From contig CAZLVJ010000003.1 in assembly GCA_964562935.1 (NCBI GenBank), positions 1 through 42,704 on the forward strand: a stretch of 42,704 bases of DNA, in the 5' to 3' direction. The notes below the pieces were generated by a model. It was given only the letters and a program-made list of their open reading frames with translations. It was not told where the DNA came from and searched no databases. The stretch is from an uncultured Nitrososphaerota archaeon. GTDB taxonomy: Archaea > Thermoproteota > Methanomethylicia > Nezhaarchaeales > WYZ-LMO8. Position 1 is the first letter of the stretch. Each line of letters begins with the position of its first letter. The translations under genes were made by a program, and so were the position numbers. Of this stretch, positions 3,157 through 40,321 are shown piece by piece.

Positions 3157-3788
3157 CCATGGTGATGCGTTACGCGCGATACACCTCATTTGGACCCTCA
3201 TCTTTATGCGCGCTGCACCACAAGGGGTAGTCATTCGTTGAGGACCTTTTGATAGAGCTTGAAAGGTTGATTTCGCCAAGCACTCATGCTACTGATTCTA
3301 TGGCGATGAATTTATTCAAGCCTTAGGAGAGGCATCACGATTAACGGAACCTAGGGTTGTTGAGACTTAACATCGCAGTACAACTACTTTCCAGCCCCGC
3401 TTATCCGCTTAACTAATGAGATATCGAAAAAGCTACGCTTACTCTGCTTTAGCATTAGCGCTATGCCACTTAGCGCTCTAAGTTTCGATTTTTGTTATCG
3501 TCGCCCTGGCACTAGCATCAGCGCCTCGTTCTTGCACGTACATGGCATAAGGGCCTAAAGTTGTAGCAACGTCCAGACCTTGAGTCAGACATCAGCAAGC
3601 TAACCCCTAAAGCCAGCCATCGAGGTTAATTTTTAACAAAATTGAAGGCCCCAAGCCAGGTTGAGCACCCTCCAAAACATCAAGCCATGCCACTAGGCGT
3701 AAAAAGCGACGAAGGTGGGCACGACCTCGCTTTCGCCATTACATCCCCCTTAAAACTTATATGCAAGGCTTGGCAAAGAGAGAGAAGC

Positions 3789-4514
3789 ATGCTTTTGTGC
3801 AAGGGGATAACTAAAAGCTTTGGTGGCTTGGTCGCATTAAGGAACGTGAGCCTGGAGATCAAAGAGGGAGAGATAGTAGGCCTGATAGGCCCCAACGGAT
3901 CTGGCAAGACAACGCTGTTCAATGTGATCTGCGGTATATATCGACCTGATAAGGGGGCCGTCTACTTTAAGGGGAGGGACATCACCGGTCGTAAGCCTTA
4001 CGAAATTTGCAAGCTCGGAATCGGGAGAACCTTTCAGCTAGTTAAGCCTTTTAGAACCATGACCGTACTAGAGAACGTCATGACCGCAACTCTCTTTGGC
4101 AGGTCTAAGTTCATTACTATGACCGAAGCTCGAAAGCAAGCATTAAAATTGCTGGACTTCGTCGGTCTTTCCGACATGAAGAATAGGGTGGCCGGAGAAC
4201 TTGGTATCGCCTCTCTGAGATTGCTCGAAATTGCGAGGGCCTTGGCCACGGAGCCGGAGCTCTTACTGTTGGACGAGGTAATGGCCGGCTTAAATCCTGT
4301 CGAGGTCTCAAGAGTGGGAGCCCTCGTAGAGAAGGTTAGGCGAGACCTCGGCATCACAATTTTCTGGGTCGAACACGTTATGAGAGCAATAATGAAGCAT
4401 GCAGATCGAGTCATAGTCCTAGATCGAGGCGAGAAGATAGCTGAGGGGACTCCTAAAGAGATAGCGCAGGACGAAAAGGTCATTAAGGCCTATCTTGGTG
4501 AGCCCTATGCTTGA
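3789..4514 (+). CDS. livG: ABC ATP-binding protein (LivG-like)
   Basis: Walker A GPNGSGKTT, GIGRTFQ, LLLLDEVMAGL; ATG at 3789 with TATA-like ttaaaacttata at about 3750-3762. Confidence 0.92.
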   Translation: MLLCKGITKSFGGLVALRNVSLEIKEGEIVGLIGPNGSGKTTLFNVICGIYRPDKGAVYFKGRDITGRKPYEICKLGIGRTFQLVKPFRTMTVLENVMTATLFGRSKFITMTEARKQALKLLDFVGLSDMKNRVAGELGIASLRLLEIARALATEPELLLLDEVMAGLNPVEVSRVGALVEKVRRDLGITIFWVEHVMRAIMKHADRVIVLDRGEKIAEGTPKEIAQDEKVIKAYLGEPYA

Positions 4515-18392: not shown

Positions 18393-18507
18393 TGGTGCGG
18401 GGGGTGGGATTCGAACCCACGAAGGCCTACGCCACGGGATCTCTCATCCGGCCTCCGCGCGAGTGAGATCTTAAGTCCCGCCCCTTTGTCCGCTCGGGAA
18501 CCCCCGC
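18393..18507 (-). tRNA. tRNA-Leu(TAA) with 29-nt intron and encoded CCA
   Basis: Acceptor GCGGGGG/CCCCCGC, anticodon arm CGGGA-CT-TAA-GA-TCCCG after intron removal, long variable arm, GTTCGAATC T-loop, ACCA end; 86 nt mature. Confidence 0.95.
18441..18469 (-). other. tRNA intron at canonical 37/38 position (BHB)
   Basis: Central helix CUUA/UGAG with 3-nt bulges AG|A and AG|A; removal restores the 7-nt anticodon loop. Confidence 0.9.
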
Positions 18508-18585: not shown

Positions 18586-19685
18586 ATGAGTGGGTGCGCT
18601 CTCGTGAAGTTCTTCGAGGCCAGGAGCGTGGAGTGGAGAGACGGGGTCGTGAGGCTCATAGATCAAAACGCCCTGCCCTGGGAGCTGCGTTACGTGGAGT
18701 GCAGGAGCCCCGAAGAGGTCGCGAGGGCCATAAAGGACATGACCGTGAGGGGGGCTCCAGCGATAGGGGTTGCTACTGCCATGGGGATAGCGCTCGCGGC
18801 TTACCACTCAAACGCCAAGAGCTTAGAGGCGCTCCTGAGGGAGGTCGAGGAGGCGGCTCGGGCTCTGTCTAGGGCCAGGCCAACAGCTAGAAACCTCTTC
18901 TGGGCCATCGAGAGGATGATGAGTGCCGTCAAGAGGGCCAAGAGCCTTGAGCAGGCCAAAAGGATTGCCGTGGACGAGGCCATTAAGATGGCGGAAGAGG
19001 ACGTTGAGGTGAACAGGAGGATAGGCGAGATAGGCGCCTCCCTGATAGAGGACGGCGACGCGATACTGACCCACTGCAAACAGCTGGGCTGAGTAGGCCC
19101 AGCTGGCAGATTGCGGGGGCGCTGGCGACTGTAGGGTACGGCACGGCCCTAGGCGTGATTAGGAGCGCGGTTGCCCAGGGGAAGAGGGTAAAGGTCATAG
19201 CGACCGAGACGAGGCCGAGGCTCCAAGGGGCGAAGCTGACGGTGTACGAGCTCAAGAGGGACGGCATAGACGTGACGCTCATAACGGACAACATGGTCGG
19301 CTACGTCATGAGCCAGGGGATGGTGGACAAGGTCGTCGTGGGGGCAGACAGAGTGTTGAGGGACGGGCACGTGGCCAACAAGATAGGGACTCTGACCATA
19401 GCCATAGTGGCCAAGAGGTACTCAGTGCCCTTCTACGTGGCGGCCCCCTCCTCGACGTTCGACTTGAGCTCGAGGGTCGAGGACGTGGTCATAGAGCAGA
19501 GGGATCCGAGAGAGGTTCTGGAGGTTAACGGGAGGCCTATAACGATAGACGTGGAGGTCCTCAACCCGGCTTTCGACGTAACGCCGCCCGACTTGGTAAC
19601 CGCGATAATAACGGAGAAGGGCATAATAAGGCCTCCTTACCACGAGAACATACCCAAGACTGTAGCGAAGGCGACAAACGTTTAA
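18586..19685 (+). CDS. mtnA: Methylthioribose-1-phosphate isomerase (eIF2B-like family), spliced: join(18586..19079,19112..19685), 355 aa
   Basis: IDQ..LP, MTVRGAPAIG, ARPTA.NL, and after removal of the 32-nt insert [44 protein letters not shown]; the two ORF-track fragments are in different frames; true start may be GTG 18604. Confidence 0.9.
19080..19111 (+). other. Putative BHB-type mRNA intron (32 nt) in mtnA
   Basis: CUGC(19074-77)/GCAG(19106-09) 4-bp helix, bulges AA|A and AU|U, 9-bp intron stem CAGCUGGGC/GCCCAGCUG; splicing gives AA+U = Asn of HCNAG. Confidence 0.85.
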
Positions 19686-27327: not shown

Positions 27328-28557
27328 TCACGAACCCTTAACGGTTTTCACCTTTGTCATCGCTATTAACGCTGTTGCGATGGCCCCTGCAGTTATGCCA
27401 ATCGTGTAAGACGTTTTATAGCTGCCGTACATGTCGGCTAACAGGCCGCCAATGTAAGGTGCTAAAATGGAGCCCGGTCCTGAGAAAAACCCTAAGAGCG
27501 CGGTCGCCTGCCCCGCTACCCTCCAGTCGAATAAGTCTTTAACGAAGACGGCGTACAAGGGCCACTTCGCACCGAAATCTACTCCTATCAAAACCGTGAA
27601 GAATATCAGGCCCAAGATAGAACCAGAGAACAAAAAGCCTAGTAGGGACGCAACCAATATAGCGTTGCATGCCACGAGAAGCGGCTTCCTGCCAATCCTA
27701 TCGGAGAGGGCCGGGAGGGCCAAAGCTCCTACGAGGCCTACGAAGCTCATCAATCCATATAACAAAGTGGAGACGTCTATGCCCATCATAAGCTCCCTGC
27801 TCAAGTATGCCTTATAGAACGTTGCGTGGATCATTGTAGCGAAGGCCGATAACGCATAGGACGCGCCAACGAGCCAGGTGCGTCGGTCTCTGAAGACGGC
27901 GCCTATGCTACCGTGGGCCTCCCTCCCCTCGTAGTTGCGATCGCCAGCTCTAGGCTCGCGCCCCGTGCTTACGAGGAGTACTGAGAGGAGGGCTATCGCG
28001 CCCAACGATAGCCAAACCCCCCTCCAGCCGAACAAAGGGACCACATGTGGAATCGCTAATGCCATGAGGAATGGACAGAGCTTCGTCCCGGTCTCCATGA
28101 AGCCCACGATAAGTCCCCTCTTCCTGGGATACAGCTTTTGCGACCAGATGATCACGGGGGACCACCCAGCCGATGCTCCTATGCCGGCGATGACCGAGGA
28201 CAAGACCCCGTCGACGATCGAAGACGTCATGCCCACAAAAATAGAACCCACCCCCAACAAAGGAAACATCATCAAAATGGTCCTCTTCGCGCCTCTTCTA
28301 TCTATTAGAGGGCCCGTTACGAATGACGTAAGCGTATAGGCTAGGAGGAAGCATGAGAACATGGTGCCGACGTCTTGGTTTGAGAAATTCAGGCCGCTCA
28401 TCATCTCCGGCATCAATAAGCCGTATGCATATCTAACGCCGAAGTTTATTGTGATGACGACGTAGCACGTCGCTAGAGTTAGCAACGACCTTTTGTCAAG
28501 GGTTCTGTGCGTAGCAGCAAGCTCGACCTCGGACAACCCGAGAAACCCCTTGCTCAT
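27328..28557 (-). CDS. Major facilitator superfamily transporter
   Basis: About 12 hydrophobic segments, G.LIDRRG.K and LSDRIGRK motif A, P.KRG. Confidence 0.9.
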   Translation of the reverse strand: MSKGFLGLSEVELAATHRTLDKRSLLTLATCYVVITINFGVRYAYGLLMPEMMSGLNFSNQDVGTMFSCFLLAYTLTSFVTGPLIDRRGAKRTILMMFPLLGVGSIFVGMTSSIVDGVLSSVIAGIGASAGWSPVIIWSQKLYPRKRGLIVGFMETGTKLCPFLMALAIPHVVPLFGWRGVWLSLGAIALLSVLLVSTGREPRAGDRNYEGREAHGSIGAVFRDRRTWLVGASYALSAFATMIHATFYKAYLSRELMMGIDVSTLLYGLMSFVGLVGALALPALSDRIGRKPLLVACNAILVASLLGFLFSGSILGLIFFTVLIGVDFGAKWPLYAVFVKDLFDWRVAGQATALLGFFSGPGSILAPYIGGLLADMYGSYKTSYTIGITAGAIATALIAMTKVKTVKGS

Positions 28558-39658: not shown

Positions 39659-40321
39659 ATGATGGAAATGTCCTCGCTTGACGCTTGGGTACCGGCGACG
39701 TATGTAGGGAGATTGGTGAAGGAGGGCAAGATAACAAGCATAGACGAGATCTTCGCCAACAACTTGACGATAAAGGAGCCGGAAATAGTCGATGCGCTAC
39801 TACCCGACTTAAAGCACGAAGTAATCGACGTGAAGATAGTTCAGAAGCAGACGGACATCGCCTAGCGAAGCGCTAGGCGACCGTAAGCTGGCGAGATCTC
39901 GAGGTTCAAAGTAGTGGTGGCTGTAGGCAACGAAGCGGGCTACGTCGGGTTGGGCTTCGCCAAGGCCAAGCAGATGAGGGAGGCCATAGACAAGGCGATA
40001 GTGGAGGCCAAGCTCAACATAATCCCTGTCAGGCTCGGTTGTGGGAGCTGGGAGTGCAGGTGCGGCAGGCCGCACAGCGTGCCGATAAGGACTTGGGGCA
40101 AGGCGGGGAGCGTGGAGATGACCCTAATACCAGCGCCTCGAGGAACGGGCTTAGTGGCTGGCGACACGGCCAAGATAGTGCTCAGGCTCGCCGGGGTCAA
40201 GGACGTCTGGACCCTCACCAAGGGCGAGACTAGGACCAAAGAGAACATGGCGAAGGCGGCCCTCGAAGCACTTAGGAATACGCTGGCCTTCAAGTCGGTG
40301 AAGGACTGGGCGAGAGCATGA
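39659..40321 (+). CDS. rps5p: Ribosomal protein uS5, spliced: join(39659..39856,39887..40321), 210 aa
   Basis: [26 protein letters not shown]|[33 protein letters not shown]; 30-nt insert carries in-frame TAG and TAA. Confidence 0.93.
39857..39886 (+). other. Putative BHB-type mRNA intron (30 nt) in uS5
   Basis: Exon helix CAG/CUG, central helix ACGG(39851-54)/CCGU(39881-84), bulges AC|A and AA|G, 10-bp intron stem UCGCCUAGCG/CGCUAGGCGA. Confidence 0.92.

Follow-up and report, generated by a model that had tools for sequence, protein, structure and literature searches.

Is the broken mtnA gene in a 42,704-nucleotide (nt) stretch of DNA from an uncultured, heat-loving Nitrososphaerota archaeon (contig CAZLVJ010000003.1 of assembly GCA_964562935.1; the whole stretch is called the window here) a decaying gene, or is it an intact one that carries an intron? 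The genome of the window comprises 1.14 Mb in 123 contigs and is 69% complete. Its gene for methylthioribose-1-phosphate isomerase (MtnA) is interrupted between window positions 19079 and 19112 by a 32-nt insert (19080-19111, forward strand, as are all mtnA features below), which lies within an Asn codon. Judging from sequence comparisons, we suggest with a probability of roughly 0.8 that the insert is a real intron of the archaeal endonuclease type, recognised through a motif of the bulge-helix-bulge (BHB) kind, in the coding sequence of mtnA.

The first open reading frame (ORF) at the locus, 18586-19092, terminates with the residues A-I-L-T-H-C-K-Q-L-G and a TGA stop codon at 19090-19092, while a second frame is open from 19113 through the stop codon at 19683-19685. 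Exon 1 (18586-19079) would end with the His and Cys codons followed by the AA of the split Asn codon, and exon 2 (19112-19685) would begin with the third base of that codon; the putative intron is hence in phase 2, and its motif is of the relaxed BHB (HBh') type. The four possible 32-nt deletion registers give ATT, ATT, AAT and AAA, that is Ile, Ile, Asn and Lys, and Asn is obtained only from the cut AA/T. The motif T-H-C-N-A-G appears only once the insert has been removed, and it is then the same as in 21 uninterrupted relatives. We take the Cys of T-[HY]-C-N-A-G to be the active-site Cys of MtnA, as in the Bacillus subtilis enzyme; a search of the literature on this role gave nothing of relevance. 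The initial annotation of this stretch had already described the two ORFs, the insert with its 9-base-pair (bp) stem and TGA, the CUGC/GCAG helix with the flanking AAA and AUU, the four registers of which only AA/U restores the motif, and an imperfect exon-exon helix; we recovered each of these elements, the last of them as three offset C-G pairs only.

Both halves match Pfam PF01008 and the MtnA models when scored half by half (NCBIfam NF004326 and TIGR00512; Pfam PF01008). On NF004326 (358 positions) the N half covers positions 9-165 (E = 2.8e-48) and the C half positions 167-354, the C half alone reaching 272.1 bits against a cut-off of 271. The borders between the halves in five NCBIfam MtnA-family models are 165/167, 155/157, 158/160, 174/176 and 126/128, and because the profile ends differ by exactly one skipped position, nothing is missing but a single residue, the one encoded by the split Asn codon. 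The gene also matches solved MtnA-family structures (1t5o, 1t9k, 6a34 and 2yrf), and the nearest named relatives of the protein belong to uncultured Thermoprotei, Desulfurococcaceae, Pyrodictiaceae and Ignisphaera. The hairpin of 19080-19111 occurs as a single copy in the whole genome and the insert is therefore not a dispersed repeat. As the initial annotation had anticipated, automatic pipelines miscall the gene: in public gene calls the two halves figure as individual proteins of 162-168 and 171-187 amino acids (aa), some of which are named methylthioribose-1-phosphate isomerase.

We found mtnA in 39 of 41 related genomes. The family of the window's own genome is represented by ten genomes from four genera; nine of them hold mtnA, and the tenth (75% complete) gave no mtnA match. 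The best match lies in an open frame of 188-225 aa in the nine family genomes versus 339-408 aa in the 30 genomes of other families. With the exon ends placed by local tblastn using both halves, the insert is seen at the same codon in all nine family loci, where it measures 32, 31, 30, 27, 27, 30, 30, 31 and 29 nt. The distance from the Cys codon to the Ala codon is 30-35 nt in these nine loci and 3 nt in all 21 loci fetched from other families of the class, in which the insert is absent and T-[HY]-C-N-A-G is intact (the junction itself was inspected in the nine family loci and in eight of the 21 others). The insert is likewise absent from 78 of 78 more distant loci of bacteria and archaea (one genome per species; 80 fetched, two lacking one half), a scan that covered distant relatives only (≤72% identity, none from the family) and that serves as a negative control for the insert. 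The comparison of orthologues that the initial annotation had proposed thus agrees with its reading, since the insert is found in 9/9 genomes inside the family, 0/21 in other families and 0/78 further away. A pattern scan of metagenome contigs yielded 19 loci, nine of which are mtnA with inserts of 27-31 nt (five identical to genome sequences and four new variants); the other ten were dropped as unrelated chance matches. These related genomes are not independent samples.

Seen in the window's genome alone, with two ORFs in different frames, a premature TGA and two fragments from the gene callers, the locus could pass for a frameshifted pseudogene in which the insert is a decaying insertion. 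The family-wide comparison makes this a negligible prospect. Across 36 genome pairs the proportion of nonsynonymous differences (pN) spans 0.006-0.22 in the N half and 0-0.23 in the C half, whereas that of synonymous differences (pS) rises to 0.6-0.87 between genera; the C-half values of one genome (L009) are inflated because a one-residue indel in the C half was left unaligned. Where dS is not saturated, the ratio of nonsynonymous to synonymous substitution rates (dN/dS) lies between 0.06 and 0.19 in the N half and between 0 and 0.20 in the C half, and no stop codons occur within either half in the nine family genomes. Both mtnA halves are under strong purifying selection, and the relaxed selection that the initial annotation had named as the mark of pseudogenisation is not seen. 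The insert is retained in all nine genomes of the four genera despite saturated synonymous sites, and its structure is maintained. Moreover, no second, uninterrupted mtnA was found in the window's genome or in its near-complete relatives, or any other copy in the family; second matches are paralogues of 33-50% identity. The inserts of this type that interrupt essential genes in these genomes, described below, also argue against decay.

A second possibility is that the mRNA retains the insert and that the ribosome passes over it, through either programmed frameshifting or bypassing. In phage T4 gene 60, the ribosome bypasses a 50-nt coding gap which contains a hairpin and has a stop codon near its start, and matching take-off and landing codons are needed. 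The mtnA insert is alike in being a short gap with a hairpin and a stop; such bypass elements typically have a stable hairpin and a stop close to the take-off region, and UGC is present both before the insert (19075-19077) and at 19112-19114. However, a ribosome that landed on the second UGC would go on in the wrong frame and lose the Asn, and so neither ribosomal handling nor the matching codons of gene 60 fit mtnA. The insert lengths cover all three classes modulo 3, and inserts of 27, 29, 30, 31 and 32 nt require different frame changes in different genomes; hence no single frameshift or bypass rule serves all of them. An in-frame stop is met five to six codons into the insert in 9/9 mtnA loci, in or next to the hairpin loop, and the conserved complementarity between exonic CUGY and the 3' end of the insert would have no role in bypassing. 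We regard such skipping as extremely improbable.

The two halves might also be produced as two polypeptides which come together as a split enzyme, without any RNA-level repair. Both halves are indeed conserved and are called separately in public data, and split genes are known to occur in some small archaeal genomes. But a break inside the most conserved motif would delete the invariant Asn, the first in-frame start codon of the C half in the window's genome (GTG at 19155) lies 14 codons into conserved sequence, and the public C-half calls range from 171 to 187 aa. A split enzyme would also leave unexplained the conserved RNA structure and the cutting rule that restores AAY, both of which are treated next; it seems very unlikely.

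In the proposed structure, the last base of the His codon and the Cys codon (CUGC, 19074-19077) form the exonic 5' strand of a 4-bp central helix, H, whose 3' strand is the intronic GCAG at 19106-19109; the variants GUAG and GCGG of the latter still pair with CUGC or CUGU. The 5' bulge AAA (19078-19080), located between H and the 9-bp stem, is invariant in all sequences and holds the predicted cut at 19079/19080, while the 3' bulge or loop AUU (19110-19112) holds the predicted cut at 19111/19112 and has U or C as its third base in every sequence. The intron hairpin h' (19081-19105) has a stem of 19081-19089 with 19097-19105, made of nine Watson-Crick pairs (seven G-C and two A-U) with a tenth, U.G pair possible, and a 7-nt loop (19090-19096) in which the in-frame TGA is found. 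The outer, exon-exon helix is poor: 19070-19072 pairs with 19117-19119 through three offset C-G pairs, and a single base is left unpaired on the 5' side, against four additional ones on the 3' side. As no proper helix closes the 3' site, the motif corresponds to the relaxed HBh' or bulge-helix-loop (BHL) form, which is present here with a 4-bp H and one 3-nt bulge closed by the intron helix.

BHB motifs are cleaved after the second base of each bulge, in agreement with the geometry of introns at tRNA position 37/38. With this rule, the combination of AA/A with AU/U, AU/C, AG/U or AA/U always gives AAY, i.e. Asn, in the nine genomes and in the four metagenome variants. When 12 distinct sequences are compared, 97.4% of the cells of the proposed structure are paired (H 48/48, hairpin 99.1%, outer helix 88.9%), and pairing falls to 25-47% if the partners are slid by 1-3 columns. 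One hairpin pair switches from G-C to A-U on both strands, and the middle pair of the outer helix is C-G, G-U, A-U or U-G in eight of the 12 sequences and unpaired in the remaining four. Half of the 32 intron positions (16) are invariant across the 12 sequences, while synonymous sites between genera are near saturation (pS 0.6-0.87), and the 3' strand of H is conserved although it is under no coding constraint. Covariation in the mtnA insert is modest, and the fold of 19050-19140 is only slightly out of the ordinary in energy (z = -2.26; 7 of 200 shuffled sequences fold as well).

Several results weigh against a BHB intron. The strict hBHBh' form is not found, the 3' site being followed only by the offset 3-bp helix. 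H varies through wobbles alone (CUGU, GUAG and GCGG), with no double compensatory change, and the His and Cys codons dictate its 5' strand. Four of the 12 sequences are the metagenome variants; as the search pattern by which they were found already prescribed the outer stem and the central helix, they provide information on the inner stem alone. Nor does the genome show any enrichment of the BHB-like motif: a genome-wide scan (stem of at least 8 bp, at most one G.U pair, span of at most 80 nt) gave 81 occurrences versus 70, 82 and 60 in three triplet-shuffled genomes. As the motif alone is not rare, what exceeds chance is its placement, with exactly one profile position missing, together with its conservation across genomes. 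Among 5.8 billion predicted proteins there is no full-length protein (≥334 aa) more than 75% identical to the C half, so that a gene call stemming from a spliced transcript did not turn up; assembled RNA data from such organisms may be scarce. No RNA sequencing runs are listed for this sequence, which has no bearing either way on its expression.

To these points a competing pairing has to be added. RNAalifold, applied to the nine genomic sequences, pairs exonic CUGCA with UGCGG of the 3' exon and not in the BHB helix. In ViennaRNA this alternative is favoured with -28.6 versus -23.6 kcal/mol for the BHB conformer at 37 C, -13.1 versus -9.7 at 70 C and -6.1 versus -3.7 at 85 C. It fits the alignment in 96.7% of cells versus 100% for H, and the comparative counts are unable to separate the two pairings. 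It is therefore conceivable that the insert is removed at the RNA level by a structure or enzyme other than the BHB motif and the splicing endonuclease EndA, for instance with the alternative conformer as the substrate, an exon-exon helix that leaves the intron hairpin in an asymmetric internal loop. The CUGYA/UGCNG complementarity, however, is forced by the His-Cys and Ala-Gly codons; it will thus be present in any mtnA and is no sign of selection. It is the intronic strand GYRG, free to vary, that stays complementary instead, and for this reason we infer that the BHB conformer is the form recognised by the enzyme. The central helix of a sibling intron in the uS5 gene, at the corresponding position, has a double compensatory change, and we know of no enzyme for the shape of the alternative conformer. 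Removal by such another route appears unlikely on balance. We also observed that the 3' end of the intron (GCAG-AU) resembles the start of exon 2 (U-GCGG; both within 19106-19116), so that exonic CUGC has two possible partners; the resemblance could be a trace of the origin of the intron, or a conformer switch.

The genome seems to be equipped for splicing a BHB intron. It has two EndA paralogues (contigs C5 and C11), each with N- and C-terminal domains. One of them matches PDB chain 3p1z_B (E about 1e-51) and aligns to residues 13-186 with two small gaps, of one and two residues, neither of which is in the basic loop region G-K-F-I-G-V-S-K-P-K; it keeps the catalytic His, the residue that is replaced in 3ajv_B. 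The second paralogue has weaker matches to EndA chains, the partner chain 3p1z_A among them. The entries 3p1z and 3ajv presumably represent the Aeropyrum pernix endonuclease heterotetramer. The genome is thus predicted to encode a two-subunit splicing endonuclease of the crenarchaeal type, with broad specificity; the typing of EndA subunits, another check named by the initial annotation, hence gave two paralogues with one close to the crenarchaeal catalytic subunit. An RtcB-type ligase is found on contig C19 (PF01139, 606.6 bits, in an open frame of 505 aa).

With these components, splicing of mtnA could proceed as follows. Exonic CUGC and intronic GCAG would pair in the pre-mRNA to form the 4-bp central helix, placing the 5' splice site within the 3-nt bulge AA/A, between this helix and the 9-bp hairpin. 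The 3' splice site, AU/U, would lie in a larger loop owing to the weak exon-exon helix, as in the relaxed HBh' or BHL arrangement. The two-subunit endonuclease would then cleave both sites and RtcB would ligate the exons, and we infer that this is how the intron is excised. Translation of the spliced mRNA would produce full-length MtnA of about 355 aa, and unspliced mRNA would be read only as far as the stop codon of the hairpin loop.

Two further inserts, both with 10-bp stems, were revealed by a scan with the same geometry, and their removal restores the conserved proteins uS5 and aIF2-gamma. The insert in the uS5 gene (rps5; window 39857-39886, forward strand) has 30 nt, is in frame, and contains TAG and a 10-bp hairpin; located between the ORFs 39659-39865 and 39914-40321, it splits K-Q-T-D from A-G-E and forms a full BHB with a 3-bp outer helix. 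It is presumably the "first" mRNA intron which the initial annotation had counted before that of mtnA. A uS5 insert of 22-34 nt is found in all 14 genomes of two families and is absent from 11 of 11 others. Many of the changes in its hairpin are compensated, and its central helix is altered on both strands, from ACGG/CCGU to ACAG/CUGU. The aIF2-gamma insert (contig C1:78668-78700, corresponding to L172:1369-1401, reverse strand) has 33 nt, is in frame, and contains TAA and a 10-bp hairpin. It directly follows the P-G-H-E motif, and inserts of 31-35 nt are found there in 10/10 family genomes and in none of 15 others. As both genes are essential, uS5 and aIF2-gamma must be repaired at the RNA level; essential genes that are interrupted family-wide leave little room for anything else, and therefore support the intron reading of mtnA.

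In-frame stops are found in or next to the hairpin loop in all 14 uS5 inserts, and in six of the ten aIF2-gamma inserts there is an in-frame stop; such stops may limit the translation of unspliced mRNA. The cbf5 gene was not found in the window's genome, which is 69% complete. At the level of protein profiles, the cbf5 match is broken near profile positions 66-76 in 4/4 relatives checked (G003, G005, G009 and G013), in three of them it falls into two pieces, and in the fourth it is a single match that contains an internal stop; this apparent interruption fits the published cbf5 intron.

A looser scan with a filter for ORF restoration gave 205 candidates, of which only three survived inspection. 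Nearly all of the candidates are artefacts of adjacent genes or of open non-coding frames. One candidate, at C5:17013-17040, was rejected since it appears to be the start of an RNase HII-like gene; it carries the motif D-E-A-G-R-G, which we take to be RNase HII-like.

The closest known system is the cbf5 pre-mRNA intron of Crenarchaeota, reportedly described in Watanabe 2002 and Yoshinari 2006. According to Yokobori 2009 (PMC2738675), this intron is short, often has a relaxed motif and splits the codon of the catalytic Asp, which agrees with the statement of the initial annotation that it lies by a catalytic residue. The cbf5 intron and the mtnA insert are alike in their length of tens of nucleotides, their location in a coding gene, where they split a codon at or next to a catalytic residue, their often relaxed motif, and a host with a hetero-oligomeric endonuclease; some cbf5 inserts keep the reading frame and some do not. 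Unlike cbf5, which codes for an RNA-modification enzyme, mtnA codes for a metabolic enzyme, and its insert has a much narrower spread (one family, 9/9 genomes).

Non-canonical tRNA introns provide a second comparison. PMC6379350 describes tRNA introns with relaxed BHB motifs (hBH, HBh' and BHL) that are cut by EndA of the (alpha-beta)2 and epsilon2 types, in line with the statement of the initial annotation that heteromeric crenarchaeal endonucleases cut relaxed motifs. Like a tRNA 37/38 intron, the mtnA insert presents in succession the exonic strand of H, a bulge of 3 nt in which the cut follows the second base, a hairpin and the intronic strand of H, with the second site next to the exon helix, and the same enzymes would be expected to act on it. 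It differs in that no tRNA body aids recognition and in that the mRNA is possibly loaded with ribosomes during transcription. A BHB intron is also reported for HVO_1309 of Haloferax volcanii, in the 5' untranslated region (PMC7714728). That transcript, as described there, is likewise an mRNA substrate of the archaeal splicing endonuclease; unlike in mtnA, the intron lies in an untranslated region, in a euryarchaeon, and leaves the reading frame uninterrupted.

HAC1/XBP1 mRNA splicing is independent of the spliceosome: a protein endonuclease cuts at small stem-loops, the exons are joined and the reading frame is altered. In eukaryotes it is carried out by IRE1 and RtcB, according to PMC13149111. 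The endonuclease and the recognition motif differ from those proposed for mtnA, and the process belongs to a regulated stress response; hence the likeness is an analogy and not a homology.

In PMC7714728 (2020), the cbf5 intron is given as the only BHB intron reported in archaeal mRNA before HVO_1309. We found no report of introns in mtnA, uS5 or aIF2-gamma in the full-text literature, whose coverage excludes subscription journals, or in the accessible portions of PMC12397907, PMC13149111 and PMC12817955. Under the intron reading, mtnA is a new host gene for a known type of endonuclease-spliced mRNA intron, and the added point is that one lineage holds several. The intron of mtnA adjoins the codon of the active-site Cys, that of aIF2-gamma the P-G-H motif, and that of cbf5, according to the literature, is at the codon of the catalytic Asp, all of them thus at or beside an active-site motif; that of uS5 is in a strongly conserved stretch. 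More tentatively, and with considerable doubt, this archaeal family may have expanded endonuclease-spliced introns into at least four coding genes (cbf5, uS5, aIF2-gamma and mtnA). If true, such an expansion would imply active gain of introns into mRNAs, for instance by reverse splicing through endonuclease and ligase followed by copying into DNA, or a regulatory coupling in which the tRNA-splicing machinery is linked to translation and to methionine salvage.

Introns are an extreme rarity in the protein-coding sequences of archaea; if a single lineage adds a second, a third and a fourth host gene, an isolated curiosity would become a small class. Such a class would allow the study of intron gain, of placement at active-site codons, and of splicing in the face of coupled transcription and translation. 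In practical terms, because pipelines fragment these genes, mtnA, a ribosomal protein and an initiation factor are wrongly missing from the metabolic reconstructions and completeness estimates of this lineage.

A few other elements of the window were noted. Two BHB-like hairpins, at 27985-28014 (reverse strand, 8-bp stem) and 3702-3739 (forward strand, 7-bp stem), lie inside the uninterrupted ORFs 27328-28557 (reverse strand) and 3642-4514 (forward strand), respectively, and were set aside as probably due to chance. Located 80 nt upstream of mtnA is a tRNA gene (18396-18507, reverse strand) that was missed by ARAGORN and by a scan of the whole window at Rfam gathering thresholds. It reads as a tRNA-Leu whose anticodon is UAA and whose CCA end is encoded, scored 41.8 bits when scanned locally, and carries an insert of about 31 nt after the anticodon loop.

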